Source of the DNA: Actinomycetota bacterium
GTDB taxonomy: Bacteria > Actinomycetota > Acidimicrobiia > Acidimicrobiales > JACDEA01
Direction of reading: 5' to 3'
Assembly (NCBI GenBank): GCA_013816725.1
Contig: JACDEA010000001.1
Location: 1-54,920, forward strand
DNA: 54,920 bases
Shown: one piece after another, positions 11,416-52,818 of the stretch
Position numbering within the stretch: position 1 is the stretch's first letter
How the letters are laid out: every line of letters starts with the position of its first letter
Made by a program: the position numbers and the translations under genes
The notes under the pieces: generated by a model
Seen by the model: only the letters and a program-made list of their open reading frames with translations
Database searches by the model: none
What the model was told of the DNA's origin: nothing

Positions 11416-11976
11416 TCAGGGTTGGCGGCCGAGGTACCCGGCGGCACGGTCGGCGGGGCACGCCGACGCATCGACCTCGACAATCGGACCGAACGGAGCG
11501 CCCTCAGGACCGCGGAACTGGTCCGGAATCATCGCGGCGCCAAGGATCGCCGAGGCGATCGCCGGGTCCAGATCGGTGGATTCGCCAAGCGCCTTCGCCA
11601 GGTCCCAGCCGTGGGCGTAGGTATCGGTTGCTGCGATCATGACGAACACCGAGCCGGGGAACTCGCCGAACGGCAGCTTCATGGTCTTCTCCATGACTCC
11701 CGGAGCGCGGAAAGCGGCCACCGCAGCTTGCGCGCCCGACGCGAAGGCGGCGTTGAAGTCTCCCGCGCTGAAGTCCGGCGGCGTGCCTCCACCCTCCGGA
11801 ACTCCTCCGGTTTCGGCAATCCCCGCGAAGAAGTGCGTCCCGCCCACAATGTGGTTGATCAGCTCGCGCACGTTCCACGACGCACAGGGTGTGGGGTCGT
11901 CGAGCTGGTCGGTCTGCACCTTTGCCAGCACGCCAGCCGTGCTGGCGAAAGCTTGCTCAAGAAGATCCACACTCAT
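11416..11976 (-). CDS. DinB/MDMPI-like (TIGR03086-type) metal-binding protein
   Basis: 'QLDDPTPCASWNVRELINHIVGG' is the typical N-terminal signature of mycothiol-dependent isomerase-like DinB-fold proteins. Confidence 0.75.
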   Translation of the reverse strand: MSVDLLEQAFASTAGVLAKVQTDQLDDPTPCASWNVRELINHIVGGTHFFAGIAETGGVPEGGGTPPDFSAGDFNAAFASGAQAAVAAFRAPGVMEKTMKLPFGEFPGSVFVMIAATDTYAHGWDLAKALGESTDLDPAIASAILGAAMIPDQFRGPEGAPFGPIVEVDASACPADRAAGYLGRQP

Positions 11977-12198
11977 GATTCTCCCTCACTTGGTGATCTT
12001 GGCGACGATCGTACGACCCCTCGAGGCACGCGGTTCCGGCAACCGCGCCATCCGTCGAACAACAGCGTGGACTCTCGGTGCGCACCCGGCCGCGGCCGCA
12101 CTCGCGTTCAGCAACGGGACGCACTTGCAGTCGAAGGTGGATCGCAGCTACGAAATGATTAAGACTGATCCTTGCGTAGAGGCCGCTTCTGAGGCACG

Positions 12199-13491
12199 AT
12201 GTTGTTGCGAAGGGATACCGACAGATCCTTTCGTAACGCCTGCTCCACGAAAGGGCTTCCGCTGGCCGAGCTCGTTGACCGGATCTGGGAAGGCAGTGGT
12301 TACGGTGCGCGCCGCGACCGGAAGCCCTTCCGCTATCAGTCATTCGTCCCGAATCCCGTTGGCGACTGGGACCGGCCGCTCGCGCCCCGAGCCGCTCAAG
12401 CCGTTGCTGATGCCACCGCAGCCCTCAGCGGGCTGCAGGTCACCCGACCGGGTCACGACCTCGAGTCCCTTGCCACTCCCCTGCTTCGTTCCGAGGCCCT
12501 CGGCTCGTCATTCATCGAAGGACTCCGCTCGTCGAACAAGCGGCTCGCCCTTGCGGCCTACGAACCCGTGGCCGTCGACCCGATTGCCCGGGCGGTGCTC
12601 GGCAACGTCAGGGCCATGGAGCGCGCCGTCGAGCTAGGTGCGGCAACACGGCGTTTCCGGCTATCTGATCTGCTCGACATCCACCGCACGCTCCTTGAGG
12701 GCACTTCGGAGGAGCGATTCGCCGGGATCATCCGTACCGATCAAAACTGGATCGGCGGGCGTGGCCTCAGCCCCGCCGACGCCACGTTCGTGCCACCGCC
12801 CGAAGACCGCGTGCCAGGGTTGCTCGACGACCTCGTCGCGCTCATCAACCTCGACGATGCACCCGCAGTAGCGCAAGCAGCCGTCGCTCACGCGCAGTTT
12901 GAGACCATCCACCCATTTGGCGACGGCAACGGCCGCACTGGTCGGTGCCTGATCCACGTTGTCTTGCGTCGCCGAGGTGTCGTCCCGCTCGTGGTACCAC
13001 CCGTGAGTGTTGTTCTCGCCACGAACGCGCGTCGGTACATTGCTGGCCTCGTCGATTTCCGCGAAGGTCGCGTCGATGACTGGATCGGCGCGTTTGCCGA
13101 TTCGGTCACAAGCGCGGCTCAAGCGACGAACCGGCTATCTGTTCGGATCGACGCCCTGCTCGAAGTACTGCTTGCGCGTGCTGGCGCACCCCGCACAGAC
13201 TCTGTCGCGCGCCACATCGTTCTCGGTTTACCGGCGCAGCCAGTCGTGAGCGCGGAGGTGGCCGCTGCTCGGCACGCCGTCACGCCGACCGCAGCGCGCG
13301 CCGCGCTCAACCGGCTCGAGGCCGCCGGAGTGCTCGTTCTAACCCGCGTCGGGCGAAGGCGTGACCGAGAATGGATCAGCGACGAGTTGTTCGAACTACT
13401 CGACGCCTTCGAACACGACCTCGGTGAGCTCAGCGAAGAAGGCACTGACCGGCCGATGCCCCGACGAACGCGCCCGCCCCGAAAGAGGTGA
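12199..13491 (+). CDS. Fic/DOC family protein (second paralogue)
   Basis: Fic motif 'HPFGDGNGRTGRCLIHVVL'. 430 aa. C-terminal 'ARAALNRLEAAGVLVLT' is wHTH-like. Confidence 0.9.
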   Translation: MLLRRDTDRSFRNACSTKGLPLAELVDRIWEGSGYGARRDRKPFRYQSFVPNPVGDWDRPLAPRAAQAVADATAALSGLQVTRPGHDLESLATPLLRSEALGSSFIEGLRSSNKRLALAAYEPVAVDPIARAVLGNVRAMERAVELGAATRRFRLSDLLDIHRTLLEGTSEERFAGIIRTDQNWIGGRGLSPADATFVPPPEDRVPGLLDDLVALINLDDAPAVAQAAVAHAQFETIHPFGDGNGRTGRCLIHVVLRRRGVVPLVVPPVSVVLATNARRYIAGLVDFREGRVDDWIGAFADSVTSAAQATNRLSVRIDALLEVLLARAGAPRTDSVARHIVLGLPAQPVVSAEVAAARHAVTPTAARAALNRLEAAGVLVLTRVGRRRDREWISDELFELLDAFEHDLGELSEEGTDRPMPRRTRPPRKR

Positions 13492-16908: not shown

Positions 16909-17115
16909 GCCTCCGCCGACAAACCCGGTCACCACGCCCGGGCTCTGACGCGTCCGGAGTCGGGTCGCGCGCACCAAGTTGGGTGTTCACAGGCTCGCTG
17001 CGCCCGAACACCTAGCATCAGCATCGCTGTCGGATGCCCGTCACGAGGTTTTGTGCCGCGTTTTCTACAGCCCCCGCCCCCGTAGCTCAGGGGATAGAGC
17101 ATCGGTTTCCTAAAC
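16838..17115 (+). repeat. Copy R2 of the flank + tRNA 5' half block (partner of 8698-8985)
   Basis: See 8698-8985. This copy contains the functional tRNA 5' half. Confidence 0.7.
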
Positions 17116-17147
17116 CGTGTGCGGAGGTTCGAATCCTCCCGGGGGCG
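17076..17147 (+). tRNA. tRNA-Arg (anticodon CCT)
   Basis: Folds by hand: GCCCCCG-TA-GCTC-AGGGGATA-GAGC-A-TCGGT-TTCCTAA-ACCGT-GTGC-GGAGG-TTCGAAT-CCTCC-CGGGGGC-G. 72 nt, no encoded CCA. Confidence 0.9.
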
Positions 17148-17259
17148 CAAGAATAAGTGCAGGTCACAGCGACTTTCTAGGGTGGCTGTAAGGTTCGCTG
17201 AGCCGAGCTGCCCATCCGAATCGCCACTCTTGCCCATCCGATGCGCGATGATGTCAGGC

Positions 17260-23700: not shown

Positions 23701-23749
23701 ACTCGACGACGTCGGTCTCAAACTGCCTTTCCTTCACGTGTTCAGGCAT
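20726..23749 (-). CDS. hsdR: Type I restriction enzyme R subunit
   Basis: 1007 aa. 'MPEHVKERQFETDVVESL' N-terminus. 'QHSAGSGKSNSI' Walker A. 'IIVDEAHSSQ' DEAH box. 'TLSRLNR' helicase motif VI-like. Confidence 0.95.
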   Translation of the reverse strand: MPEHVKERQFETDVVESLVAHGGYTQGLNDFYDVKLGIDGSELLAFIGATQIEKWNKLIDRLGGDPNETQLKFKQRLASELDKHGTLHVLRKGVEEQGVRFDLAYFRPAHSKNPELVEAYSKNRLTVTRQLRYSAAHGNSVDLCLMVNGLPVATAELKHHLNGQTVDNAIWQYEHDRDSKDVLFRRALVHFAVDTRLAYMTTRLEGASTAFLPFNRGSAPGELSCGKGNPPNPDGYATAYLWERVWAYDSWLDILGRFVERVVEPALDKKPARTTVIFPRFHQWDAVVRLAGDAKQRGPGQSYLVQHSAGSGKSNSIGWLAHRLSLLHADDDAKVFDKIIVVTDRRALDEQLRATVSQFESVPGTIVSVEGKKDSKSEELAKALGGKAQIVTVTLETFPHVIAKLDDVDLASQRFAIIVDEAHSSQTGDAATALKQALGAKAADASEDDDDFDAETALAAIVAARGRQPNLSFFAFTATPKDRTVELFGVLGPDKVKRPFHLYTMRQAIEEEFILDVLANYTTYSTYFRLATTDDAEIEVDVSKASSAIRKFIWQHPHMIGQKAAIVVEHFRAHTGSALGGRAKAMVVTESRAAAVRYKQAIDRHIAEHQYTDIKSLVAFSGEVIDDSGQSVTESSMNAFPDSQTARRFKGEPPYSPGDYQVMVVAEKFQTGFDEPYLHTMFVDKKLSGLNAVQTLSRLNRGAPGKADTFVLDFRNEADEIRNAFQRYYEAVIVEPTDANVLYDLRARIMGAGIFDPIEITKAAEAYFGVDPAKRSLKVIHANLDPAVVRFGELAEDAQDALKDGVDQFTRAYAFLSQVMPFTDPELEKLYVYVKALRTLLRDAATGGLDLGDDLVLTHLRLKGHGSEDLKLAPGEIEASKVFIGEGLGGRHEAMKASLAELIAEINDRFGTDLDERDRLEAEKVQITLSANEELKTYAKANPIDNFALEFSAKFKSAILDTEAHTERLYNLLLTNPELAAMIEHEVMKATYHSMRDEGERDDTSFA

Positions 23750-24446
23750 TCAGAAGCCCTTCCAAGGGCGCGCCGGTCATCACGGTTGTGATGAGGGCCT
23801 GGCGGCGCTCGTCGAGCAGGCCGAAGCCGCCACTCCCGCGGGGGCCCAGCATCTGCTCGTGCTCAAGTGAGATCGCGTCGAGATGAGCGGTTTCATCATC
23901 GAGGAACTGTGCTCGCATCTCCTGTTCGGCATAGTCCGGCGGGGTTGGGATGCCGATGCTCCCAAGGTCGGCGGCGTTCACCGCCGGGTAGCTGACTCCG
24001 ACAGAGCGCGCAACGACTTCCTCGACGAATGGGCTTGAGCGCAGCCACCAGTACAGGTATCGAGGCTGGACCTGCTCGACCCGTGGCGTAAGAGTCGCGA
24101 AGCCCGTCGATACCACGCAATGGGCGACAGGCGCATCGATGTACGCGATCGCCTTCAAGTAGGTGCGGACTGTCGAGACGATGGAATCGCCGACGCGAAC
24201 GAGACGCCGCGCCCGCGAGGGCGCCGCAGAGAACGGCATCTCGTCGCGGGCTGAGAACGAGCCAGTAGAGCTCACGGTGCTGATATCGATGTAGTCGATT
24301 GTCCGGTCCGGGTCCGTTGTCTCCGGCAGGGACTCGCGGTTGATCGCGGCCACGTTCTTGATTCGCCACCAGGTCCATGCACTCGGCACGTCGCCCATTG
24401 CCGCGTTCAGTGGGGCAGATGAGTGGCGTAGACCGGTTCCGTTCAC
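23742..24446 (-). CDS. hsdS: Type I R-M specificity subunit, half-length (single TRD)
   Basis: 234 aa. 'GDSIVSTVRTYLKAIAYID', 'VVSTGFATLTP' and a C-terminal helical conserved region. GTG start overlaps the stop of the hsdM tail frame. Its stop overlaps the hsdR ATG by 8 nt. Confidence 0.8.
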   Translation of the reverse strand: MNGTGLRHSSAPLNAAMGDVPSAWTWWRIKNVAAINRESLPETTDPDRTIDYIDISTVSSTGSFSARDEMPFSAAPSRARRLVRVGDSIVSTVRTYLKAIAYIDAPVAHCVVSTGFATLTPRVEQVQPRYLYWWLRSSPFVEEVVARSVGVSYPAVNAADLGSIGIPTPPDYAEQEMRAQFLDDETAHLDAISLEHEQMLGPRGSGGFGLLDERRQALITTVMTGAPLEGLLNA

Positions 24447-24618: not shown

Positions 24619-26475
24619 TCACCTCTGGTCGATGAACTCGTCGATGTCCTCATAAAGGGGGACGTTCTCGGTGTCGCGGAGCTCAGGGTCGGGCTCGAAG
24701 GCCTTGTTCGTCTTCACAGGGTCGGCGTAGGGATCCCTCACCATCGCTGCCGCGATCACTGCCTTCCGGACCGGTGCTCCCAACTTCCCGACCTTCGTCC
24801 AGATCGGCGCCAGAGCCACCTCGAGATCAGCGAGCGTGTCGAAGCTCGAGCCGACCAGACTTGCGATCGCCTCCGTCAGTGCGTCGGCTTGGCCACCGAG
24901 CTTGACCACCGGCGATGCGGTGGAGAGCGCCCTCACCGCCTCGCCGGTGATCGCGTACCGGACCCGGAGCGGGCGTTCGACAGTAACCTTGCGATAGCCG
25001 AACGCTGAGTTCGGCAGGACCTGCGACCGGTCCGTCTCGGCGAAGTCCTCGTACAACTGCGTGATCTGTGTGATCTGGGCGGCGCTGAGCTCGTTGCGCT
25101 TGTTGCCGAGGCTCGGCTTCATCTTCACGAATAGGTCGCGCGCGTCGAGGAGTTGCACGTGCCCTTGCCGCTCTGGTCGCTTCCGGTTCGTGACGACCCA
25201 GATGTAAGTGCTAATTCCGGTGTTGTAAAAGAGCTGGTCGGGCAGGCCGATGATGGCGTCGAGCCAGTCGGTCTCGATGATCCACCGCCGGATTTCACTC
25301 ATCCCGCTACCCGCATCGCCGGAGAAGAGCGGTGACCCGTTGAATACCACAGCGATGCGGCTGCCGCCTTCGTCAACAGCGCGCATACGCGAGATCATCT
25401 GTTGCAGGAAGAGGATTTGCCCGTCGGTCGTGCTGGGCAGGCCGGCGCCGAACCGTCCCTCGAAGCCGAGCTGTGCATGCTCCGCCTTGACTGGCTTCTC
25501 AATCGTCTTCCAGTCCTTGCCGTAGGGCGGATTGGCGAGCATGTAGTCGAACTGCTTGCCGGCAAAGGCCGGACTGGTGGTCTCGTCCCCTCCGTACTTC
25601 GTGAATGTGTCGCCGAACGCGATGTGCGCGTTGCCTTGTCCTTTGAGGAGCATGTCGGTCTTGCAGACGGCGTAGGACTCGGGCTGCACCTCCTGGCCGA
25701 ACAGGTGCATCCGGGCTGAGGGATTGATCGCTCGCAGGTGCTCCTCTGCGACCGACAACATGCCGCCGGTTCCACACGCAGGGTCGTAGACCGTGAAGAT
25801 CTTGCCTGGAGCGAGAAGGCGGTCTTCATCGGCGAACAGGACGTTGACCATGAGCTCAATTACCTCTCGCGGCGTGAAGTGCTCACCGGCTTCCTCGTTC
25901 GAAAGGTCGGCCGTGACGCGGATCAGCTCCTCGTAGATGTACCCCATCTCGAGGTTCGAGACCACGTCTGGATGAAGGTCGATCTCGGCGAACTGCTTGA
26001 CGACCATGTAGAGGATTTCCGCCTCCGCCATCTTGTCGATCTGGTTGGGCAACCCAAACCGGAGCAGTGCGTCACGGGCGTTCGGGGAGAACCCGCGGAC
26101 GTACGCGTGAAAGTTCCGGCTGATGTTGTGCTGATCGGCGAGGAGCGCGCCGAAGGTGAATCTCGAGGCGTTCCAGAAGGGCTGGCCGGCGAGGTGGCTC
26201 AAGACGTCGGTGGCGGCGTCCCACTTGTCGGGCCCGAGTTCGCCTGCCTTCGCGACGACCTTGTCCTTCGTCGGCTCAAGAACGCAGTCGAGTCGACGCA
26301 GCACACATAACGGCAGGATCACGTCTTGGTACTGGTGCCGCTTGTAGTGGTCGCGGAGGGTCTCCTTCACCGACCAAATGAAGGAGATCTTCTCCCGCTG
26401 TTTCGCGCTCAGGCCGGCGGCAGGCGTCGGGACGGTTTCGTCGGTCACCATGGCTCCTCGATCGATGTCAGACAC
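24619..26475 (-). CDS. hsdM: Type I R-M N6-adenine DNA methyltransferase (M subunit); C-terminal ~58 aa continue in another frame to 24443
   Basis: HsdM_N-like 'FIWSVKETLRDHYKRHQYQDVILPLCVLRRLD'. 'VYDPACGTGGML' SAM motif I. 'MLANPPYG' motif IV. Confidence 0.9.
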   Translation of the reverse strand: MSDIDRGAMVTDETVPTPAAGLSAKQREKISFIWSVKETLRDHYKRHQYQDVILPLCVLRRLDCVLEPTKDKVVAKAGELGPDKWDAATDVLSHLAGQPFWNASRFTFGALLADQHNISRNFHAYVRGFSPNARDALLRFGLPNQIDKMAEAEILYMVVKQFAEIDLHPDVVSNLEMGYIYEELIRVTADLSNEEAGEHFTPREVIELMVNVLFADEDRLLAPGKIFTVYDPACGTGGMLSVAEEHLRAINPSARMHLFGQEVQPESYAVCKTDMLLKGQGNAHIAFGDTFTKYGGDETTSPAFAGKQFDYMLANPPYGKDWKTIEKPVKAEHAQLGFEGRFGAGLPSTTDGQILFLQQMISRMRAVDEGGSRIAVVFNGSPLFSGDAGSGMSEIRRWIIETDWLDAIIGLPDQLFYNTGISTYIWVVTNRKRPERQGHVQLLDARDLFVKMKPSLGNKRNELSAAQITQITQLYEDFAETDRSQVLPNSAFGYRKVTVERPLRVRYAITGEAVRALSTASPVVKLGGQADALTEAIASLVGSSFDTLADLEVALAPIWTKVGKLGAPVRKAVIAAAMVRDPYADPVKTNKAFEPDPELRDTENVPLYEDIDEFIDQR

Positions 26476-26620: not shown

Positions 26621-29600
26621 TCAGGGCATGTCGATTCCCGCGCCTTGGTCGATCTCGTGGGCGTTCTCGTAGAGGAGTTCGACTCGCTCATAGCGTTGAC
26701 GAGTCGCCCAGTCACTTGGCCGAGGGCCGAGGAACTCGTCAATCGTGCGAGCGCCCTCGGACGGTTGCCAGTCAGTAGAAGCCCAGTGGTTGCGCGCGAA
26801 CTCGGCGGCTTCGTCCCACTGGCAAGCACTGACGCTGGTGCCGTGAGGCCGCGCGCCGAGCAGACGTTCGATCGTCACCGAGGGCTCGATGCTGGTGGTG
26901 AGTCGGTGTTGGAGTCGCATGGCCACCTGCGCCTGCGCGAGAAGCGAGCATTCCATCTGCTCGGGCGCGTGGTCGGCAACGAACTGTTTGTGGGCGGCGT
27001 GCTCAGCCTCAAACTCTGCGAGCTGGTGCTCGTAGACGCGAAGGCGCGTCGAGTACCACGTTCTGGCCTTCACATCGGGCCGGGCGTTGAGAAGCGCGTC
27101 GCGCTTGCGACGCGCTGCGGTCACCTCGGAGCCACGGGACGGTGGACTGGCGGCCAAGATTCGCTCCAGCTCGCGGATGCGGGCGCGGATGTCGGTCGAA
27201 GTCGTCGTGCTCAGCACCTGGGCGACGGCGGCAGCACGTGGATCGACCTCGTGCGCCGTTGCCTTGGATCCCCGGTTGGCCATCGCGTCGGCAACGGTGT
27301 CGAGGCTCGGACGCTCGGGCTCAACGGCGTGGAGGCCCGTGTCGTCGGTGAGGTCGACCTCACCTTCGACGACGTAGATCCGCGTCTGGTGGCGAGCACG
27401 GGTGAGGGCGACGTAGCCCTCCTCGAAGCGGCTCGCGTCGGTCGGGTGGTAGCGGCCGGTCTGATGGGTCGCACCTTGAACGAGGTAGGTGGTGCGGGCG
27501 TAGGCGTGCTCAAGGTGTCCGTCGTCGAGGTACCTGGCCGGGAGCCTCACAGTGCCTTCCCGGTCGAACGCGACGAGGAGCTCGCGGCTCTGGACGTCGA
27601 CCTCTGTGATAGTGCCCACGCTGCCGTTCTTCACGAAAGCGCGTCGACCGGGTGCGCGCAGCGTTCGGTCGTTGCGACGGGCGATCACCTCGTCGCCGAC
27701 CATGAACTCGCTGCCCGCGACGAGGAGCGGTGGACCGCTGAGCGCGCCCTCAGCCTTGAGAAGCGCGCGGGCGCGTGCGTTGAGGGCGCGCTGCGTGGAG
27801 TTCGGTCCGGCGATCATCGGATCGCTCTCGCCGTGGAGGCGGCCGGCATACCAATCGGCGACCATCGCGTCATGGCACTCGCCGGCCGTGGCACAACGCA
27901 CGACCTTGCCGGCGTCGTCGTAGCGAGCGAGGGCGTCGGCGATGCGACCTTCGCGGTAGTCGGCGATGGCGAGGCGCTCGTCGGCCTCGACCTGACGGTT
28001 GTTCTCCACGAGCATCACGGCATCGGGAGTGTGGCTGGCGAGGTAGCGGAACACACCGCCGGTGTCGACGGCGGTGTGCTGGTCGGGGTCGCCGATGAGC
28101 TTCAGCGATCCGCGGGCGCGCGCGACGTGTTCGAGCAGTCGGGCGAGGTCGCGGGTCCCGACCATCGACGCCTCGTCGACGAGCAGGACGCCACGGTCGG
28201 GGAAGCCACCGAAGCGGGGGTCGCCGAGTTGGTTCAGGAGCCCCGCGATCGTCGTGCTGGCGACGCCGGTCGAGCGTTCCAGTTCGGCGGCGGCCGTCGC
28301 ACTGACCGAGCACCCCACCACGGAAACACCGCTGGCGAGTAGCGCAGCTGCGCAGGCCTCGGCGGCGTAGGTCTTCCCTGAGCCGGGTCGGCCGACGATA
28401 GGTTGCACGGTCGTGGTCGACTCGCAGACCGCGCGCACCATCGCTCGCTGTTCGTCAGACAGCTCGGGGCGCGCGGCGAGGGCTGCGTCGATGTGGTGGC
28501 CGTCGGCGGTCGGTGCGTGATAGCCGGCTCCCTCTGCAGCCACGGTCAGAACGTGCTCTTCGATGGCGAGCAGCTCGGGCGTGCTGAACAGCGCGAGCCC
28601 AGCCGTTCTGACGACGGTTCCTTCGCTCCCGATCGCGTGCTGGCGCCGGTGACCTCCGGTCGGGAGCAACGGCACGACTCGGCCTGAGCCGAGGAATCGA
28701 TCGGCGGCGCGCTCGATCTCGGCCGCGTGCATCCGGTCAGCGCAGTTGTTAGCGAGCCACTTGATGGCGTCGCGTCTGGTGAACGTGGACCTCTGCTCGG
28801 TCACACCTCTCGACCCGCCGGCGCGGTCGAGGGCAGCCTCGACCTCCTCGCGGGTGAACGGCGTCGGGGACTCGTGGCCGAAGCACGCTTGCACGGCGTC
28901 ATCGTCGAAGCCCGCCTCGGTTGCTCGGTCGCGCCACTGGCGGACCAGGATGTCGGGCGCGACGCCGTAGTCCTTGGCCGCCCGACTGGCGAGCGTCGCA
29001 GCCTGCCGAGCGCGCGCCGAGCTGTAGCCCGACTCGGCGAGCAGCGCCTCGATCTCGTCGCGGCGCTGACTGAACTCGGTGATCACGTCGTTCGGGACGC
29101 CGACGATCTCCGCCCAGCCGTTGTGGACCGGACTCCATCTGACGCCGAGGCGCTGGCTCAGCAGATGACGAAGGTGGGCCTGGTAGAGGTGACCACCCGA
29201 CAGCGCGTGGTCGTAGAGCGGTCGCCCATCGAGGGCGCGCCAGGTGTCCAGCGCGGTGAAGGTGAGGTTCGTGACGACGACGTGGGTGTGCAGGAGCGGG
29301 TCGCCAGCTCGGCTGGTGCGATGGTCGAAGGCCGCAGCGACCAGTCCGCGGGTGAGTACTCGGTCGCCCTTCGACCGGGCGAAGATCGCCTGGCCTTCGA
29401 GGTAGCGGACGACCTCGTCGACCGCCTCGCGGTGCGCGTCCCGGATGAGCGCGCGCTGGTGCTCGTCGCCGAGGGCCCAGAGGACCGACACGCTCTTGGG
29501 TGGTCGCAGGGTGACGTCGAAGCCCGGCCGCGACTTCGGCCGGTGATGCTCGGCGGCGTATCGGTTGAGCTCGCTGCGGCGAACCCGCCAGCCAATGCGG

Positions 29601-29983
29601 CCGGTCGCCTCGGAGACCGCCTTTTCCGCTGCGAGGACCCCGTGCCGGAGCAGGCGACGGACGTAGCGCTCGGAGCATCGGAGCTGCGATCCCGCCTCGA
29701 TCGTCGAGAGCCAGCCGTCGCGACCATCGGACACGTACGGCTCGGCGGCATCCGACCGATGACCGCCGACGAGTTGCTCGCCGGTGAACGGGTGGCGGCC
29801 CTCGAGCAACCGACGGAAGTGGTCAGGGTCGACCTGGCCCTCGAGACCGAGGTCGGCGGCGAGCGAGCCGACCCATCGTCCGGGGGCTTCGCCGTGGCCG
29901 AGGTAGTAGTCCTCGGCTGACGTCGCGATCTCGCCGACGTAGTACTCGGCTCCGCCCGGCCGCAGCCGGCCGATGCTCAGCAC
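26621..29983 (-). CDS. MobF-family conjugative relaxase (TrwC/TraA-like) with RecD-like helicase domain
   Basis: GTG start gives 'MLSIGRLRPGGAEYYVGEIA'. 'GRWVGSLAADLGLEG'. 'FDHRTSRAGDPLLHTHVVVTN' His triad. 'VGRPGSGKTY' Walker A. 'LLVDEASMV'. Confidence 0.9.
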   Translation of the reverse strand: MLSIGRLRPGGAEYYVGEIATSAEDYYLGHGEAPGRWVGSLAADLGLEGQVDPDHFRRLLEGRHPFTGEQLVGGHRSDAAEPYVSDGRDGWLSTIEAGSQLRCSERYVRRLLRHGVLAAEKAVSEATGRIGWRVRRSELNRYAAEHHRPKSRPGFDVTLRPPKSVSVLWALGDEHQRALIRDAHREAVDEVVRYLEGQAIFARSKGDRVLTRGLVAAAFDHRTSRAGDPLLHTHVVVTNLTFTALDTWRALDGRPLYDHALSGGHLYQAHLRHLLSQRLGVRWSPVHNGWAEIVGVPNDVITEFSQRRDEIEALLAESGYSSARARQAATLASRAAKDYGVAPDILVRQWRDRATEAGFDDDAVQACFGHESPTPFTREEVEAALDRAGGSRGVTEQRSTFTRRDAIKWLANNCADRMHAAEIERAADRFLGSGRVVPLLPTGGHRRQHAIGSEGTVVRTAGLALFSTPELLAIEEHVLTVAAEGAGYHAPTADGHHIDAALAARPELSDEQRAMVRAVCESTTTVQPIVGRPGSGKTYAAEACAAALLASGVSVVGCSVSATAAAELERSTGVASTTIAGLLNQLGDPRFGGFPDRGVLLVDEASMVGTRDLARLLEHVARARGSLKLIGDPDQHTAVDTGGVFRYLASHTPDAVMLVENNRQVEADERLAIADYREGRIADALARYDDAGKVVRCATAGECHDAMVADWYAGRLHGESDPMIAGPNSTQRALNARARALLKAEGALSGPPLLVAGSEFMVGDEVIARRNDRTLRAPGRRAFVKNGSVGTITEVDVQSRELLVAFDREGTVRLPARYLDDGHLEHAYARTTYLVQGATHQTGRYHPTDASRFEEGYVALTRARHQTRIYVVEGEVDLTDDTGLHAVEPERPSLDTVADAMANRGSKATAHEVDPRAAAVAQVLSTTTSTDIRARIRELERILAASPPSRGSEVTAARRKRDALLNARPDVKARTWYSTRLRVYEHQLAEFEAEHAAHKQFVADHAPEQMECSLLAQAQVAMRLQHRLTTSIEPSVTIERLLGARPHGTSVSACQWDEAAEFARNHWASTDWQPSEGARTIDEFLGPRPSDWATRQRYERVELLYENAHEIDQGAGIDMP

Positions 29984-30062
29984 GGTGACCGCCTCAGCAG
30001 GTTCCGCCCCAGGCGGAACCTGCAAGTCTTTGAACGCTTGTCAACGGCGAGCGGGAGGACGG

Positions 30063-30392
30063 TCACCGGGCAGTGCGAGTGACGGTGGATGCGGGCGCAT
30101 CGCCTGGGCGCGTTCGGGTCGGGCCTTGCTCGCGGCACGTCGGGAGCGGAGTTATCGCGGAGGGCCGACCAACGAGGTCATCGACCGCCCACTTGGGAAT
30201 CACGATGCGGCGGACGTTGAGCCGCAGGGCGTAGAGCTGTCCGTGATCGATCATGTTGCGGACGGTGCCGGCCGAGACTTTCAGGCGCACCGCCACCTCG
30301 CCGACCGTGTACACAAGCGGCGACTGCTGCGGGCCGGGCCAGTGCTGCTCGCCGGCGACCGGCTTCAACGGGGCGCAGTGGTGTCTTTCCAC
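30063..30392 (-). CDS. Excisionase-family (MerR-like) HTH DNA-binding protein
   Basis: 'VYTVGEVAVRLKVSAGTVRNMIDHGQLYALRLNVRRIVIPKWAVDDLV' is the typical excisionase-family helix-turn-helix. Confidence 0.8.
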   Translation of the reverse strand: MERHHCAPLKPVAGEQHWPGPQQSPLVYTVGEVAVRLKVSAGTVRNMIDHGQLYALRLNVRRIVIPKWAVDDLVGRPSAITPLPTCREQGPTRTRPGDAPASTVTRTAR

Positions 30393-30847
30393 GGCACCTC
30401 CTCCCGAAAGTCAAGCTCGGTGGGCGTGTGCGGCCCTGCGGTCGTCATCCAAATCACGGTCCCGGTCACCCTCCCGGTCGCAGTGTGCGGTCCCGATCGC
30501 GAGTCCCGGTTCTGGTGCGGCGATCAGAGCTGCGTGAACGATGCGCCGGCACCCTCAGCGGAATCCTCAGCGCGATAGCCGACGCAACCGTGACCATCCC
30601 GTTGATTGGCGCTGACCGGCTCAGCAAGAACCTCAACGTCGCAGGTCAGAGGCATCAGCGGTTGGGTCACGGTGACGGTGATCTTGGTAGCGGTGACGAA
30701 GTGCGTCAGGAGCGGTCACCAGAGGTGCGTTGACGCGTGAGCCTCAACGCTGCGGCTGTCGACGATCAATCACAGCGCCGCGGCGCCACTGGGTCGCGTC
30801 ACACCGCCGCGTATCGGTAGTGAAGAGATCCGAACCCGAGGAGTCAC

Positions 30848-31105
30848 ATGAGCGAAGCAACCACACCCGCAACGACCGAGAGTCGCAACCGCATCAGGGT
30901 GTTCGTCAACGACCAGCCGTTCTTCGCGCCTGAGCCGACCATGACAGGCGCCGAGATCCTCGCCATGGCGGGCCTACCCGCCGGGAACCACCTGTTTCTC
31001 GAGGTCCCCGGTCCTGGTGACGACCGGCCGATCGGACCCGAGGAACCAATTGAGCTTCGGTCTGGCATGAAGTTCTATGACGTTCCTGTCGGCACCTTCG
31101 GTTGA
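30848..31105 (+). CDS. Small ubiquitin-like (Multiubiquitin-type beta-grasp) protein with free C-terminal Gly
   Basis: GAGGAG RBS 6 nt upstream. 85 aa. 'IRVFVNDQPFFAPEPTMTGAEILAMAGLP...LFLEVPG...IELRSGMKFYDVP' and the end '...VGTFG-stop'. Confidence 0.7.
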   Translation: MSEATTPATTESRNRIRVFVNDQPFFAPEPTMTGAEILAMAGLPAGNHLFLEVPGPGDDRPIGPEEPIELRSGMKFYDVPVGTFG

Positions 31106-31482
31106 GTGCGCTGCGTCCCGGCGAGTGGGACGCTCTAGCGGATCAGTTCGCCGACGCCACGGCGCGCGACGGACCCGACGGGTTGTCGCTGATCACGATC
31201 CCCGCCGTGAAGCTCCCTCCTGGGTGGTCAGCTGGAGCCACGCCGATCAGCTTCGTCCTTCCGGTCGGCTACCCCGCCGCACAACCCGACTGCTTCTGGG
31301 CTTCGGTGGACCTCCGTCTCGCGTCCGGAGCGATGCCGTCAAACAGCGGCGTCCAGCAGATCCCGCACACCCAAACCGAGGCGCTCTGGTTTTCGTGGCA
31401 CCTCGCCAGTTGGCGTCCGGCGACGGACAACATTTCGACCTACGCCCGCTTCGTTCTCAGGAGATTCGCTGATGCCCGCTGA
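31102..31482 (+). CDS. Prokaryotic E2 (UBC-like) family protein
   Basis: TTGA overlap with the Ubl stop. 'ISFVLPVGYPAAQPDCFWAS' has the candidate catalytic Cys codon at 31291-31293. 126 aa. Confidence 0.65.
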   Translation: MSALRPGEWDALADQFADATARDGPDGLSLITIPAVKLPPGWSAGATPISFVLPVGYPAAQPDCFWASVDLRLASGAMPSNSGVQQIPHTQTEALWFSWHLASWRPATDNISTYARFVLRRFADAR

Positions 31483-32836
31483 GCTCCGATTCACCGACGT
31501 GCAGTTCGACCAACTCCGACGTCACCTGCTCGCCGATGACGACGAGCATGCTGCGGTCCTCATTTGCAGCTCCGCTGGCTCGCAACGCGAGCTCCTGCTC
31601 TGTCGTCGAGTGGTCCTGCTGACGGACGCCGACCTTGAGGCCTCGTCCGGACGCCTGCACCTTGATGTCTCGCCGCTCACCCTCGCCCGTGTGACCAAGC
31701 ATGCGCGAGCCGACGGCTGCACTGTTGTCGTGTGCCACTCACATCCCTTCCCCGGCTTCGTGATGGCGTCACGGATCGATCTCGACACCGAACTCGACCT
31801 CTGCGGTCGTGTTCTCCCCGGGCGCCTCGCTGGTCGTCCTTCGGGAGCGCTCATTCTCGGTCCCGATGGCTACGACGCTCGCATCTGGGTTGAAGGAGAA
31901 TCGTCGCCTCTGCGTGTGCGCGTCGCGGGACGGTTGATCGAGAGCGGTCGCAACACGGAACCCGGCTCGGGCGACGAGCCGAGCGCACGCCAGCTCCTGG
32001 TGTGGGGGACGGCAGGTCAACGCCGGCTCCGTGATGCATCGGTCGCGGTCGTGGGAGTCGGCGGGACCGGTTCGCATGTGGCGATACAACTCGCCCACCT
32101 CGGCATCGGGCGGCTTGCGCTTGTCGATCCCGACGTCGTCGAAGCAAGCAACCTCGGACGGCTCGTCGGAGCGACGGCGAACGATGTCGGCCGCCCCAAG
32201 GTGGAGGTGCTTGCATTAGCTGCTGCGGGTATCCGCCCGGAGATCGTCGTCGAGCCCATCGTCCATTCGGTGCTCGACCTCGATGCTGACGTTCTCGCCT
32301 CCAAAGACCTGATTGTGTGCTGCACCGACGGCCACGGATCACGGGCGCTGCTGACCGAGTTGGCCGCCCAGTACCTGGTGACACTCATCGACCTCGGCGT
32401 GGAGGTACAAAGCTCGCAGGGATCAACGCGCGCCGGTGGCGGCGTTCGCATTGTGCGGCCCGGCGCACCTTGCCTTCATTGCATGAACGTGCTCGATTCG
32501 GCGTTGGTGCGCGAGGAGTTCCTGAGCGATGCTCAGCGGGACGAGGAAGAGAAGCGCGGCTACCTCCGCGGTAGTAGTGAGCCCGCTCCTTCAGTCATCG
32601 CTTTGAACGGCGTGATCGCGTCTCTAGCGGTCGTCGAAGTGCTGAATGAGCTACTTGGTCTCTTCGCAGAATCCCCGCGGCGTCTCCTCTACCGCGCTGA
32701 GGCTCGGTCCGTGACAACGGCTGATGCGACAGGCCAGCACGGCTGCTACGTGTGCCGACCGGGCGGCATCACCGGCCTCGGCGACGCCCGTCGGCTGCCA
32801 CGTCGGCAGGCAGAACCGCGCAGGGGATCGGGCTGA
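31472..32836 (+). CDS. JAB/JAMM peptidase fused to ThiF/MoeB-type E1 adenylyltransferase
   Basis: 'EHAAVLICS' and 'CHSHPFPGFVMASRID' fit JAMM E / HxHx7Sx2D. 'VAVVGVGGTGSHVA', 'LVDPDVVEASNLGR' and the CLHC + CYVC zinc pairs fit an E1. Confidence 0.9.
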   Translation: MPAELRFTDVQFDQLRRHLLADDDEHAAVLICSSAGSQRELLLCRRVVLLTDADLEASSGRLHLDVSPLTLARVTKHARADGCTVVVCHSHPFPGFVMASRIDLDTELDLCGRVLPGRLAGRPSGALILGPDGYDARIWVEGESSPLRVRVAGRLIESGRNTEPGSGDEPSARQLLVWGTAGQRRLRDASVAVVGVGGTGSHVAIQLAHLGIGRLALVDPDVVEASNLGRLVGATANDVGRPKVEVLALAAAGIRPEIVVEPIVHSVLDLDADVLASKDLIVCCTDGHGSRALLTELAAQYLVTLIDLGVEVQSSQGSTRAGGGVRIVRPGAPCLHCMNVLDSALVREEFLSDAQRDEEEKRGYLRGSSEPAPSVIALNGVIASLAVVEVLNELLGLFAESPRRLLYRAEARSVTTADATGQHGCYVCRPGGITGLGDARRLPRRQAEPRRGSG

Positions 32837-33063
32837 TGTCTACGCTCTTGGCGATGGACGACTCGACTGCCGCATCCGACGAAGGCGCCAATGTCCTTCC
32901 TGGGGAGCCGCTAGACAGCGGATTTCGCTTTCGGCCAGCGCGCAACGTCCCAGAGGCGCGGCTATCGGACGCAGCTCGAGAGCGAGTGCTCCGCAAGATG
33001 GAGAGTGTCGACGAGGCGCGCCTTCGGGCGGCCAAGGAGGGCCACACCGCCTACGTCGGTTAA
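32836..33063 (+). CDS. Small acidic hypothetical protein ending in Gly
   Basis: ATG overlaps the E1 TGA by 1 nt. 75 aa 'MSTLLAMDDSTAASDEG...AKEGHTAYVG-stop'. Confidence 0.4.
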   Translation: MSTLLAMDDSTAASDEGANVLPGEPLDSGFRFRPARNVPEARLSDAARERVLRKMESVDEARLRAAKEGHTAYVG

Positions 33064-33075
33064 CAGGTCAGCCGC

Positions 33076-34560
33076 ATGAGGTTCTCCGACTGGACGCCAG
33101 CCAACCCCGAGCCCGCCCAGATCGTCGACCTTCGACCGGAGGGCGTGCTCCTGGGTTTGGCTCGCTACTACGAAGGGACGAGACCCGCCGTCGTCCACGA
33201 GGCGCTCGGCCAGGCGTACTCGCTAGGGGCCCAGACCGCGGTGATCGAGTTCCGATACCTCGATCCCGACTACCGCAGCGAACACAGCCGCTTCTACTCC
33301 ACGACGTTCCGGCGCTACCCGTCGGTCGCCCACCGGCTTCACTTCTTCTCCTCGCCACCGCCGGACGAATGGCGCGACCCAGAGCGAAGCCTCGACTTCA
33401 CCTCCCTAGACGCTTCGTACCTCGGTTTCGTCGTGATGCGACCGCTGCCGGGTGCACGGGTCGGGCGAGTGGCGCTGGCCGCGCACGACGATCTCGTGAA
33501 GGACGTCACCTGCATCACACGAGAGCACGTGAACGTCTTCGGCGCGCCGATGTCCATCCGCGCGGCGCCTTTCATGGCTCAGGACGCACAGCTCGGCGTC
33601 TGCGCACACATGGCCCTCTGGGTCGTCGCGCAGCATCACCACCTGGCGTATGGCCGCGCCCGCTGCACTGCAGCGGAGGTCGCTGAGCTAATCCCAACTG
33701 ATCTTGGACTCGGCCGGCCAGCGCCGTCGAGCGGCCTCACAGTGGAACAGTTAGCGGCAGGATGTAGGGCGCTCGGTCTGCCTGCTCTCGTTTACAAATG
33801 CAAGGAGACCACCGACCTTCCTGCGGGCGAGAAGATTCCCGGTGTCGCTTGTCGCTACCTCAACTCGGGTATGCCGGTGATAGTGGCAGCGGGGGGCCAT
33901 CACGCCTTCACGCTCGTCGGATATCGGCGCGTCGATGCCGGCACCAAGGACGAACGCATCCACTTCATCCGTCAGGATGATGAGATCGGTCCGTACCAGG
34001 TTGTCGAGGACTTCGCCCACGACCTTCACGGAAAGTGGGAATGGCTGATCGTTCCGCTGCCATCGAAGGTCTTTGTCCCCGGTGAGATCGCGGAGAGTCT
34101 GGGTAGCGAGCAGATTCTCGAAACGGCAAGCCATTCTCCACATCCGGCGGCACAAGACCTCGTGGCCGAGACGGCCGACCCAACCAACCGCGCCGTCAGC
34201 TTCCGCTCGACGGTGGTGCGTTCGAATCAGTTCAAGGCCAGCCTGGTCGAGCGCGGCTTTGTCCCCGAAGCCGCGGCCCTCTACCGTCGCCTTCCGCTGC
34301 CGCGGTGGATCTGGGTCGTGGAGGCGATCCGCAAGGACGAACGGGAGCAACGTGCTTATGCGGTCGTCGCCGAGGCGGTGATCGACGCCACTGACCACAG
34401 CCGAGACATGCACGTTCTCGCGTGGAGAGTGCCCGGCGCTCTATGGACCTGGCGGCCCGACGAGGACGAGGTGGGTGACCGTGACCTGCCCGACCAGCCG
34501 CTCGTCGACAGTGTCGCCCGGTACACCGCCGACGAGCGGCTCTTGGCGCAGCCAACGTGA
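33076..34560 (+). CDS. 494-aa protein with a central papain-like cysteine peptidase signature
   Basis: 'PFMAQDAQLGVCAHMALW' (Cys codon 33601-33603). 'AAGGHHAFTLVGY' (His codons 33898-33903). 'IHFIRQDDEIG'. Order and spacing resemble papain Q/C...H...N(D). Confidence 0.6.
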   Translation: MRFSDWTPANPEPAQIVDLRPEGVLLGLARYYEGTRPAVVHEALGQAYSLGAQTAVIEFRYLDPDYRSEHSRFYSTTFRRYPSVAHRLHFFSSPPPDEWRDPERSLDFTSLDASYLGFVVMRPLPGARVGRVALAAHDDLVKDVTCITREHVNVFGAPMSIRAAPFMAQDAQLGVCAHMALWVVAQHHHLAYGRARCTAAEVAELIPTDLGLGRPAPSSGLTVEQLAAGCRALGLPALVYKCKETTDLPAGEKIPGVACRYLNSGMPVIVAAGGHHAFTLVGYRRVDAGTKDERIHFIRQDDEIGPYQVVEDFAHDLHGKWEWLIVPLPSKVFVPGEIAESLGSEQILETASHSPHPAAQDLVAETADPTNRAVSFRSTVVRSNQFKASLVERGFVPEAAALYRRLPLPRWIWVVEAIRKDEREQRAYAVVAEAVIDATDHSRDMHVLAWRVPGALWTWRPDEDEVGDRDLPDQPLVDSVARYTADERLLAQPT

Positions 34561-34611: not shown

Positions 34612-35178
34612 GTGGACGACGACCTCGAAGCGGAATTGGTGGACAAGGCGAAGCGGGGCGACCCAAGCGCAGGGCCGTTCCTAGTCAGCTTCTACGGCGA
34701 GCGGCTGCTCGGCTACGCCCGCGGCCACGCTCCCGATCTGTCCGACGCCGACCGGGAGCACATCGTCGAGTTGGCGATCGAGGCAGGCGTGCGAGCAATG
34801 CGAAGCTTCGACCCTGCGAAGGGGACGCTCCGGTCTTGGTTCCGCACGCAGGTTCGGTACAAGACCCTCGCATGGCGTCGCTCAACTCCGCCGACCAGCG
34901 AGCTCGCGCCGGAGCTGGCCGAGCCAACCATCGACACAACGCCGCCCGACCCGGCCATCACCGACGCACTGCATCGCGCGATCGCGCGGCTGAGCCATGA
35001 CGACCAGGTCGTGCTCGCGCTCCGTGACGCTGAGCGCCTCGACTATTGCGAGATAGCGCAGCGACTAACTATCAACGAGGCGACTGCACGACAGCGGCAC
35101 AGCCGAGCCCGCAAGCGTTTGCGGGACGAGGCCCGAGGCGAGGCCGCGCTTCACCACCTCGATGAGGAGATGAACTAA
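34612..35178 (+). CDS. ECF-type sigma-70 family factor
   Basis: GGAGG RBS before GTG 34612. Region 2 'FDPAKGTLRSWFRTQVRYKTLAWRR'. Region 4 'LSHDDQVVLALRDAERLDYCEIAQRLTINEATARQRHSRARKRL'. Confidence 0.8.
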   Translation: MDDDLEAELVDKAKRGDPSAGPFLVSFYGERLLGYARGHAPDLSDADREHIVELAIEAGVRAMRSFDPAKGTLRSWFRTQVRYKTLAWRRSTPPTSELAPELAEPTIDTTPPDPAITDALHRAIARLSHDDQVVLALRDAERLDYCEIAQRLTINEATARQRHSRARKRLRDEARGEAALHHLDEEMN

Positions 35179-35735
35179 TGACCAACGATGGAGGGGCACC
35201 TGACGTGAACCCCACGCCCGAGGACCAGCTAGGAGAGCTGATCTCAGAGATTGGGCTCGGTCTCTTTCCCGGCGATGTGCAGGACGAGGTGGAAGCGATC
35301 CTCGCCGCTGGTCAGTCGCTCGAGCCAGCAACGCGCGCTCGATTCGTCGACGCCGCCAAGCGGGGAACCCGCCAGATCGCTTTCTCACTCTCGACACTCG
35401 AGGTCCTGCTATTCAACAGCCGACGCGAGCAGAACCAGGCTCCCGAAGAGCTTGGGACCATCGTGCACATCGAGCCGGAAGTCATCCGCGCCATCGAACG
35501 AGGCGAGCGCACGATCGACAGCGAGGACGCAGAGAAGATCGCTGCGTGGGCCGACAGGCTCGGGCTTCAGACGAAAGTCGTCGGCCCCGCACTTCGTCGG
35601 AGCCTCGGCACGCCGGTGAGCGCTGCGTCCTACGCCGGTGAGCGCGAACTCCGCCTGACGCCGGAACAGGACGACTTTGTTCAGCGAGTCGTGCGCGCTC
35701 TAGATGAAAGGAACGACACGGCAACAGCTGAATAG
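35178..35735 (+). CDS. XRE-like HTH protein (possible anti-sigma/regulator)
   Basis: ATG overlaps the sigma TAA by 1 nt. 'LLFNSRREQNQAPEELGTIVHIEPEVIRAIERGERTID' is an XRE-type HTH. Confidence 0.65.
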   Translation: MTNDGGAPDVNPTPEDQLGELISEIGLGLFPGDVQDEVEAILAAGQSLEPATRARFVDAAKRGTRQIAFSLSTLEVLLFNSRREQNQAPEELGTIVHIEPEVIRAIERGERTIDSEDAEKIAAWADRLGLQTKVVGPALRRSLGTPVSAASYAGERELRLTPEQDDFVQRVVRALDERNDTATAE

Positions 35736-35947: not shown

Positions 35948-35991
35948 TTCCTAAACCGTGTGCCCAGGTTCGAATCCTGGCGGGGGCGCAA
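35948..35991 (+). repeat. tRNA-Arg 3' half copy 2 (att-type direct repeat)
   Basis: 'ttcctaaaccgtgtgcCCAGGttcgaatCCTGGcgggggcgcaa' versus the tRNA 'ttcctaaaccgtgtgcGGAGGttcgaatCCTCCcgggggcgcaa'. Confidence 0.85.
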
Positions 35992-36146
35992 GCGAAAACA
36001 CAGGGTGACCATTGCCAAGACCAGGGTTTATGTCACGACTCGATTGGCTGCAGTGACCGCCGATGGCCCGCGATTCACCGTCGTAATTGGGAAGAGCGTG
36101 GGAAGGATTTCGTGACCTTGGGTGATTATCTCGGGTCGAGCTGCGT

Positions 36147-51951: not shown

Positions 51952-52818
51952 ATGACCGAAACGTCGGTGGGCTCGGTGTCATCCGTTCTGCGGTTTCCGG
52001 TCAAGTCCATGCTGGGCGAAAACGTCGCTGCCGCGACCGTGAGCCAACGCGGCGTCGACGGCGACCGCGCCTACGCGCTCATCGACGAGGAGACCAACAA
52101 GGTCATCAGCGTGAAGCGGCCGCGGCGGTGGGGGCGGATCTTCGAACTGTCGGCGGCGACAAAGAGTGACGGACCAGTCGAGGTCACGTTCCCGGGCGGC
52201 GAGGCGATGGCGATCGACGACCCCGCCCTCCCCGATCGGCTCAGCGCCTTCTTCGGCCGGCGCGTCTCGGTTGCGGCCACGCCGCCGCCGGACGCAACGT
52301 TCGATGAGGCATGGGAGCGCGACCTCAAGGACGGCGCCGACCCGTACTTCGGTCTGCCCTCGCGCGACGAAGAGGGCGACGAGCTGATCGACGCCGGCGC
52401 GTTCATGAGCGGGCAGGGAAACTTCTTCAACTTTGGCGCCGTGCACCTCGTGACGACGGCGACGACGAAGCGGCTGTCGGAGGCGGCGCCCGACAGCAGG
52501 TTCGACGCTCGTCGCTTCCGGCCCAACATCGTCATCGACACCGACGAGGTGGGTTTCGTCGAGACCGGGTGGCAGGGTCACACGCTGGCCATCGGCGACG
52601 TACGGCTGTTGGTGACGTTCACCGTGCCCCGCTGCGTGATGACCACGCTCGCGCAGGGCGACCTGCCCGCCGACCGCGACGTGCTGCGGACCATCACCGC
52701 CGAGAACTCCGTCGACGTGTTCTCGACCGGGACGGCCTACCCGTGCGTGGGTGTGTACGGCGAAGTCGTCACCGGAGGCGACGTGCGCGTCGGCGACGCC
52801 GTCACGCTCATTTCTTAG
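51952..52818 (+). CDS. MOSC domain-containing protein (YcbX-like)
   Basis: 'VSSVLRFPVKSMLGE...VSQRGVDGDRAYALID' N-terminal beta-barrel. 'RFRPNIVIDT' and 'TVPRCVMTT' (MOSC Cys). Confidence 0.85.
   Translation: MTETSVGSVSSVLRFPVKSMLGENVAAATVSQRGVDGDRAYALIDEETNKVISVKRPRRWGRIFELSAATKSDGPVEVTFPGGEAMAIDDPALPDRLSAFFGRRVSVAATPPPDATFDEAWERDLKDGADPYFGLPSRDEEGDELIDAGAFMSGQGNFFNFGAVHLVTTATTKRLSEAAPDSRFDARRFRPNIVIDTDEVGFVETGWQGHTLAIGDVRLLVTFTVPRCVMTTLAQGDLPADRDVLRTITAENSVDVFSTGTAYPCVGVYGEVVTGGDVRVGDAVTLIS

Follow-up and report, generated by a model that had tools for sequence, protein, structure and literature searches.

A papain-fold cysteine peptidase and its small partner gene, a possible portable proteolytic module, in a Bub-like operon of an Actinomycetota bacterium

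What does a second peptidase do in an operon for a ubiquitin-like protein (Ubl) that already encodes a JAB peptidase? The question is raised by an open reading frame (ORF) of 494 aa in the 54,920-nt stretch of Actinomycetota DNA analysed here (contig JACDEA010000001.1 of assembly GCA_013816725.1, positions 1 to 54,920 of the forward strand; hereafter the window), which lies in a Bub-like operon together with genes for a Ubl, an E2-like protein and a JAB-E1 fusion. A preliminary description regarded this ORF as a papain-like Cys peptidase candidate and as a second protease of the Ubl operon besides JAB. The gene does appear to encode a papain-fold thiol peptidase, and we infer that it is cotranscribed with the Ubl, E2 and JAB-E1 genes, but its proposed place within the Ubl system is not supported as stated. 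Because the peptidase travels with a small upstream gene into several kinds of defence operons, a dedicated role in the adjoining Ubl machinery is improbable. The reading that we prefer, to which we give somewhat less than an even chance, is that the small ORF and the peptidase form a portable proteolytic module, carried as cargo by defence-island operons under the control of a sigma factor and a helix-turn-helix (HTH) protein (or of CapH/P), with the small protein probably serving as its first substrate or as an inhibitor. Neither the fold class nor the notion of a second peptidase in Bub operons is new; whatever is said here of mechanism, outside fold, conservation and gene linkage, is inference.

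The three motifs singled out by the preliminary description, PFMAQDAQLGVCAHMALW, AAGGHHAFTLVGY and IHFIRQDDEIG, are all present in the ORF, at residues 165-182, 271-283 and 295-305, respectively. The predicted catalytic set consists of Gln169 (codon 33580-33582), Cys176 (33601-33603), His276 (33901-33903) and Asp301/302 (33976-33981). Among 134 relatives, each representing a different 50%-identity cluster, Gln169 and Asp170 are conserved in 96%, Cys176 in 98%, Trp182 in 97%, His276 in 99%, Asp301 in 93% (with Asn in another 5%) and Asp302 in 94%, so that the Cys and His on which the papain-like assignment had leaned are indeed kept among homologues. The codon positions given earlier for Cys176 and for the pair His275/His276 (33898-33903) were also right, and of the two histidines only His276 is conserved, the His275 column being a gap in 130 of the 134 relatives. 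Gln169 sits at -7 from Cys176 and Asp170 at -6, whereas the Gln of the papain oxyanion hole is usually found at about -6.

An AlphaFold2 model of the peptidase, built from a 30-sequence alignment (predicted local distance difference test score, pLDDT, 86.2; predicted template modelling score, pTM, 0.89), has Cys176 opening a helix (176-192), His276 opening a strand (276-286) and Asp301 closing another (294-301), a placement that is, on the model, the papain arrangement. Foldseek searches of the PDB with this model retrieved C39 domains (PCAT1 6v9z/7n87, LahT 6mpz, 3b79, ComA 5xe8) and staphopains (1cv8, 1x9y, 8oig) with probabilities of about 0.97-1.0, followed by calpain and falcipain with probabilities of 0.5-0.9; the E-values of all these hits span 4e-4 to 3e-2. 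The one deubiquitinase retrieved was ZUFSP, as a weak match (7oiy, E = 0.05, template modelling score 0.22-0.40), and a search of BFVD returned generic papain/C39-like and endolysin-type matches only. In line with these matches and with the conserved catalytic residues, the middle domain is predicted to be a clan-CA (papain-fold) cysteine peptidase, closest to the C39 double-glycine peptidases and the staphopains, and the papain-like candidate of the preliminary description is thereby borne out. The C39 peptidases of the PCAT/AMS ABC transporters (PCAT1, LahT, ComA) give the best structural matches to residues ~166-334 and share the Gln/Cys/His/Asp set. Unlike them, the peptidase of the window has no C39 Pfam match and no ABC transporter fusion, is flanked by two large unique domains, and is encoded in defence or mobile-element operons rather than in bacteriocin loci.

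Both flanking domains are conserved no less than the catalytic core across the same 134 relatives. In the N-terminal domain, strong conservation is seen at E58, Y61, D63, D65, R87 (100%), H89 (98%), Y115, G117, R122 and R131; in the C-terminal domain, the conserved positions are R377, K387, W413, E416, E433, D437 (99%) and T439. When modelled separately (pLDDT 82), the N-terminal domain found no fold match in the PDB (best E = 1.5), and the C-terminal domain drew no confident structural match in the whole-chain Foldseek search. The peptidase also matches no model of Pfam, NCBIfam, PADLOC or PHROGs, and the flanks are still as unassigned as the preliminary description had them. An internal duplication, with the N- and C-terminal domains as the two copies, was considered and rejected, as hhalign finds no similarity between them. 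No secretion signal was noted in the peptidase, although its localisation was not tested.

The peptidase belongs to a very large family. When 1.84 billion representatives were searched exhaustively with its profile, 4,401 clusters (at 50% identity) came up at E <= 1e-3 and 1,379 at E <= 1e-30, and nearly all share the same full-length architecture. An identical protein (P0001) is encoded in an Actinobacteria metagenome-assembled genome, where it is annotated only as 'hypothetical protein', and the 295 relatives retrieved by a word-indexed search are all devoid of a name or a Pfam domain. Thirty family members gave no Pfam match even at E <= 10, C39 (PF03412) and its relatives included; the family profile matched no solved structure in a sequence search of the PDB, and a scan of IMG/VR viral contigs found no relatives. 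Likewise, literature searches yielded no earlier description of the peptidase family, of its small partner or of the sigma/HTH cassette described below.

The small ORF directly upstream, which the preliminary description had missed, is a constant partner of the peptidase. A homologous small ORF is found in 27 of 31 loci, at distances from an 18-nt overlap to 33 nt upstream of the peptidase gene, and the pairing extends to distant peptidase relatives (35-39% identity), including those of the sigma-less loci L028, L030 and L033. Apparently the two genes are a fixed, translationally coupled pair. Natural fusions of the two were absent among 301 proteins, and the small ORF matches nothing in Pfam or PHROGs. 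In its alignment the motif [FYL]xxx[LIM]x[STG]G stands out, and next to it comes either Pro or a hydrophobic residue; the Gly is present in 21 of 24 sequences, and a C-terminal helix motif comes after this Gly block. In the window, the double-glycine-like motif spans P22-F30 (32899-32925), and Gly29 is encoded at 32920-32922. With its Gly end and its hydrophobic residues at -4 and -8, the block resembles in sequence the double-glycine leaders cut by C39 peptidases. A second comparable arrangement is that of the staphopains (C47) and staphostatin: the staphopains are among the papain-fold matches (1cv8, 1x9y, 8oig), and here too a small co-operonic protein could be an inhibitor. However, staphopains are secreted and have a prodomain, and staphostatin is a beta-barrel encoded downstream, whereas the partner in the window is encoded upstream and looks, from its sequence, largely helical.

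Two conserved loops of the peptidase, residues 70-80 (window positions 33283-33315) and 209-219 (33700-33732; GRPxPSxGL), are modelled with pLDDT < 50. The second resembles the x-S-G-hydrophobic motif of the small partner; it might act as a lid or be a site at which the enzyme cuts itself.

Gene context was compared over some 45 related loci, sampled from the 4,401 clusters and seeded from close homologues. In most actinobacterial loci, the peptidase gene is directly followed by a gene for an extracytoplasmic-function (ECF)-like sigma factor and then by one for an HTH protein of ~200 aa. A Ubl/E1 system stands beside the peptidase in ~18 of ~31 informative loci, on both deep branches of the family tree, and in several of these Ubl, E2 and E1 genes share the operon with the peptidase (the window, L001-5, L010-12, L016-17, L026 and the P0105 locus). 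Other arrangements differ: L006 and L007 carry a complete type II Bub system, including a DUF6527 BubE, on the opposite strand; L032 combines a CapH/CapP-like pair, a Ubl-E2 fusion, JAB-E1, the small ORF and the peptidase, with no sigma gene; in L030 the small ORF and peptidase lie beside a CapH/CapP-controlled Ubl operon and lack sigma/HTH; and in L033, also sigma-less, an HTH_19 gene, the small ORF and the peptidase are divergent from a YukD-like Ubl/JAB/E1 operon.

The same pair is also found in loci without a Ubl. In six loci (L008, L009, L014, L015, L022, L044), the small ORF, peptidase, sigma and HTH genes are directly followed by a complete type III cyclic-oligonucleotide-based anti-phage signalling system (CBASS; CD-NTase/HORMA/TRIP13/TIR-SAVED), with no Ubl; these loci form a single derived clade in a neighbour-joining tree. 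Two further loci, which lack sigma/HTH, have only restriction-modification neighbours (L028, type III; L024, type I), and in an Amycolatopsis genome (L031) the cassette stands alone, the small ORF and peptidase being the only cargo of sigma/HTH and nothing else among the neighbours being recognisable. CBASS-linked and stand-alone peptidases keep every conserved residue. Conversely, operons of the type Ubl-E2-JAB/E1-sigma-HTH (L037-L040, L042, L043), which came up in a scan with the sigma protein as seed, lack the small ORF, the peptidase and BubE and keep both copies of the DNA motif described below; a search for an alternative partner gene common to them found none. The linkage of homologues to Ubl/E1/E2 genes, which the preliminary description had taken as bearing on its proposal, thus gives a mixed picture: present in ~18 of ~31 loci, and replaced by CBASS, by restriction-modification or by bare surroundings in others. 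Three modules therefore occur independently of one another, namely the sigma + HTH pair, the small ORF + peptidase pair, and a variable cargo. In one more locus (L025), the cassette is flanked on the opposite strand by genes for a SMODS nucleotidyltransferase (7237-8268, - strand) and a bacterial gasdermin (11763-12593, - strand).

If the small ORF and the peptidase are a portable module, sigma-dependent induction would bring up the peptidase as a co-regulated proteolytic effector or switch, which would work alongside the Ubl cascade and not inside it. The enzyme would probably cleave after a small-residue-Gly site, and the small partner, with its Gly motif and following helix, would be the best candidate for the first substrate or for a pseudosubstrate inhibitor; recognition of targets or signals would fall to the conserved N- and C-terminal domains. 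Several points weigh against this reading. The proposed cleavage of the partner derives from the motif resemblance. The Ubl/E1 linkage is far commoner than would be expected for a random defence gene; its recurrence on both deep branches and in varied arrangements suggests that the two may be functionally tied in a direct way. In the window itself, the module is packed tightly inside the Bub operon. The locus sample was seeded from close homologues, is not phylogenetically independent and amounts to ~35 loci set against 4,401 clusters. Finally, the spacing of the DNA motif that would serve sigma-dependent induction is unlike that of standard ECF -35/-10 elements, and the motif could be an operator instead.

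The surroundings of the peptidase in the window are as the preliminary description had them, with a Multi_ubiq Ubl, a Prok-E2_E E2 and a JAB + ThiF E1 fusion (Table 1). Bub corresponds to type 6e in the operon classes of Iyer et al. 2006 (PMC1779556), and Ye et al. described an oxyester-based pathway for it (PMC11601596). Judged by their sequences, the neighbouring genes appear to encode a Type-I-like Bub (6E) Ubl/E2/JAB-E1 pathway that lacks BubE. As in Type I Bub (6E.1), the Multi_ubiq Ubl ends in Gly, the E2 has an Asp and a Ser-x-His, the counterpart of BubB residues D299/S333/H335 (PMC11601596), and the stretch of the JAB-E1 fusion aligned to the crossover loop has a Tyr (GYLRG) and no Cys. 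D63 and S98-W-H100 of the E2 are conserved in the homologue alignment, the JAMM motif (HSHP...S..D) is intact, and operons with and without the peptidase alike keep this JAB motif and the Tyr of the E1. In contrast to Type I Bub, where Ubl and E2 are fused (BubAB) and BubE is encoded, the window has separate Ubl and E2 genes and no BubE: a scan of the operon genes and neighbouring ORFs turned up no DUF6527, and the six-frame ORFs of the window contain no DUF6527-like Cys motif. Control differs as well, being exerted by CapW, CapH/P or CapK/S in Type I Bub and apparently by the sigma/HTH pair here. A further difference is the clade-conserved Cys64 of the E2, which stands beside Asp63 (PDCF) in 12 of 15 sequences; in this E2 clade, a route through a thioester is conceivable.

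In five loci (L001, L005, L012, L016, L017), the Ubl homologues extend 2-3 residues beyond the terminal Gly (WQE, AR, RDS), so that these five Ubls would need trimming. All five are encoded in peptidase-containing operons, and the Ubls of three distinct peptidase-less operons end at Gly; these numbers are small.

Such extensions would suit a Ubl-directed thiol peptidase, an analogue of BubE or of the eukaryotic papain-fold deubiquitinases that would trim Ubl extensions and/or remove Ubl from its targets. The peptidase gene follows JAB-E1 in the window and in L032, none of the split Type-I-like operons yielded a DUF6527, and Ubl/E1 linkage is seen in both deep clades; moreover, C39, the closest fold class, cleaves after Gly-Gly, and the C-terminal tail of the Ubl reads ...G(T/N)(F/L)G. 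The resemblance to BubE is one of position, since BubE too is a second peptidase besides JAB whose gene follows E1 in a Bub-type operon; it was reported in all Bub operons and has a Ser-His dyad and a C4 zinc finger (PMC11601596), so that the earlier remark that no such partner was known in characterised bacterial Ubl systems is out of date. However, BubE has ~150 aa (159 in L007), whereas the enzyme of the window is a 494-aa Cys-His-Asp protein, is optional and shows no homology to it: it does not match PF20137 (DUF6527/BubE), a model that did recognise the true DUF6527 protein of L007 as positive control. Nor does the peptidase fit the papain-fold deubiquitinase families (UCH, USP, OTU, ZUFSP), given the weak ZUFSP match as the only one and Ubl linkage in ~18 of 31 loci.

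A dedicated deubiquitinase, Ubl-processing or E3 role is not the general function of the family, because the members in the six complete-CBASS loci and the stand-alone ones (with restriction-modification neighbours only, or with nothing recognisable) keep the conserved residues despite having no Ubl beside them, because a real BubE coexists with the peptidase in L006/L007, and because this Bub subtype lacks BubE with or without the peptidase and keeps JAB intact throughout. Two narrower versions were likewise rejected: a general replacement of BubE, which is absent from this subtype either way and coexists in L006/L007, and compensation for a degenerate JAB, whose motif is intact everywhere. 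A Ubl-directed peptidase would also leave the obligatory small partner without a role. We therefore consider this explanation unlikely, although the recurrent association with E1/Ubl systems, in several arrangements, still speaks for a Ubl-directed role in this particular operon. The role as effector, deubiquitinase or E3 within the Ubl system that the preliminary description had put forward finds no support as stated in view of the CBASS and bare loci and of the Bub-like operons that lack the peptidase.

The sigma/HTH pair brings in a second alternative. The HTH protein, which has weak matches to known HTH families, is always encoded together with the sigma factor, and the pair may represent a new 'Cap'-type controller. 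A DNA motif, GTCAC-N7-CGTA (in fuller form TGTCAC-N7-CGTA, often followed by GGTGA), stands before the first operon gene (P1) and before the sigma gene (P2). The shorter form matches 3 times in the window against 0.23 expected. The P1 position is occupied in ~15 related loci, some of them peptidase-less operons, and the P2 position in ~20, where in peptidase-less operons it directly precedes sigma. The third exact match in the window (52601-52616, - strand) is distant from the operon and may be a chance occurrence or another target of the sigma/HTH pair. TGTCAC(A) is the -35 element of ECF41 promoters (PMC3426412). Because TGTCAC and CGTA stand closer together than the two halves of a standard -35/-10 pair would, the motif may be either a promoter or an operator; a scan of the operon found no sigma-70 promoters.

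Could the peptidase, then, be the regulatory protease of this switch, cleaving the HTH protein or an anti-sigma factor encoded by the small ORF in response to a stress or phage signal and so freeing sigma? CalpL/CalpT/CalpS are protease-based regulators of immune operons, and CapP acting on CapH offers a similar precedent. As in these systems, where the protease gene stands by an HTH and/or ECF sigma gene and beside varied cargo such as CBASS and Bub (PMC13373217 for CapP/CapH), the peptidase gene lies immediately upstream of sigma-HTH in a large clade and alongside varied immune cargo; the order HTH_19, small ORF, peptidase in L033, divergent from the Ubl/JAB/E1 operon, fits such a role, and the conserved extra domains could be sensors. 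The known proteases of this kind, however, are M78 metallopeptidases or Lon-type enzymes that are obligatorily paired with an HTH or anti-sigma substrate, whereas here the sigma/HTH pair and the peptidase each occur without the other, which makes an obligatory sigma-activating protease unlikely: operons without the peptidase keep sigma/HTH with the same P1/P2 motifs, and L024, L028, L030 and L032 have the small ORF and peptidase without sigma/HTH, L030 and L032 even possessing a separate CapH/CapP-like pair. Furthermore, P2 lies between the peptidase and sigma, and thus groups the peptidase with the cargo, and the HTH and sigma alignments contain no conserved Gly motif. On balance, a regulatory role of this type seems rather improbable.

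Less probable by far is a papain-fold enzyme other than a protease (an amidase, an acyltransferase or a transglutaminase-like enzyme) or a catalytically silent scaffold. The lack of a sequence-level match to any peptidase family, the Gln at -7 from the catalytic Cys in place of the usual -6 and the novel fold of the N-terminal domain would agree with it, but the full Gln/Cys/His/Asp set is 93-99% conserved, and the top structural matches, at probabilities of 0.97-1.0, are all true peptidases. An E3-like or transpeptidase function, in which Ubl would be handed over by the Ser-type E2, be bound to Cys176 as a thioester and end up on targets that the flanking domains select, can hardly be credited, even though papain-fold Cys-His-Asp enzymes can be transferases, the two large conserved domains could bind targets and known Bub operons lack an E3 (PMC11601596), given that CBASS-linked and stand-alone loci exist, that Bub-like operons without the peptidase exist, and that the nearest structural relatives are hydrolytic peptidases.

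The setting of the operon agrees with its being mobile cargo. It occupies the right-hand end of an 18.8-kb integrative element. A 45-nt direct repeat of 91% identity occurs at 17107-17151, where it corresponds to the 3' half of a tRNA-Arg(CCT) gene (17076-17148), and again at 35948-35992, and the two copies look like the attL/attR of this ~18.8-kb element. Restriction-modification, relaxase and excisionase-like genes just upstream (Table 1) indicate that the operon is cargo of a mobilisable element, and related loci, too, adjoin relaxases, integrases, SSB, ArdC and restriction-modification genes. Around the operons of L001 and L002 there are ArdC-like (ArdcN + M78), Mrr_cat, SSB and TrwC genes; these surroundings resemble a conjugative leading region, where anti-defence genes cluster, so that a role in anti-defence or establishment is possible there.

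Table 1. Coordinates of the peptidase, its predicted domains and the neighbouring features in the window.
Feature	Position	Strand	Details
HsdS, type I restriction-modification	23742-24446	-	
HsdM, type I restriction-modification	24619-26475	-	
TrwC/MobF relaxase	26621-30025	-	1,134 aa
HTH_17 excisionase-like gene	30063-30392	-	
Promoter/operator-like motif P1 (GTCAC-N7-CGTA)	30798-30813	+	35 nt before the Ubl start codon
Ubl (Multi_ubiq)	30848-31105	+	85 aa, ends ...VPVGTFG; Pfam PF14452 E = 1.7e-12
E2-like protein (Prok-E2_E)	31102-31482	+	Pfam PF14462 E = 3.6e-9; Asp63, Ser98-x-His100
JAB peptidase + E1 (ThiF) fusion	31472-32836	+	ThiF E = 1.2e-39; Prok-JAB E = 6.5e-4
Small partner ORF	32836-33063	+	75 aa; start overlaps E1 stop (TGATG); stop 12 nt before peptidase ATG
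Papain-type peptidase ORF	33076-34560	+	494 aa; ATG 33076, TGA 34558-34560
Peptidase N-terminal alpha/beta domain (predicted)	33076-33570	+	residues 1-165; conservation, AlphaFold2 model
Papain-fold cysteine peptidase domain (predicted)	33571-34077	+	residues ~166-334; Foldseek C39/staphopain matches
Peptidase C-terminal alpha/beta domain (predicted), then stop codon	34078-34560	+	residues 335-494; conservation, model
Promoter/operator-like motif P2	34579-34594	+	peptidase-sigma intergenic; then GGAGG and GTG 34612
ECF-like sigma factor	34612-35178	+	Sigma70_r4_2 2.1e-11, Sigma70_r2 6e-4; listed ORF start TTG 34600, likely GTG 34612
HTH protein	35178-35735	+	~185-215 aa; weak HTH_3 / HTH_31 / capH-like matches; always paired with sigma gene

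Bub (6E) systems are the least understood of the bacterial ubiquitination-like pathways, and the locus adds to them a very large unannotated family of cysteine peptidases with two conserved extra domains, the N-terminal one having no match among solved structures, together with an obligatory small partner gene bearing a leader-like Gly motif. The accompanying sigma/HTH controller, with its recognisable DNA motif, would drive operons of the Bub-like or type III CBASS kind in Actinomycetota, and these elements offer testable handles on how such operons are switched and on what proteolysis contributes to them. The locus also counsels caution, in that genes inside a Ubl operon are not all part of the Ubl cascade. 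Tentatively, and with a good deal of doubt, the pair may act in immunity or stress as a self-contained unit that has so far gone unrecognised, in which the peptidase would be held by, or would process, its Gly-motif partner and be released on induction by a new type of sigma/HTH controller, or it may equally supply a missing thiol step (deubiquitinase or E3-like) of oxyester-type Bub pathways; either way, it would bring a new protease family and new sensor domains to bacterial defence.

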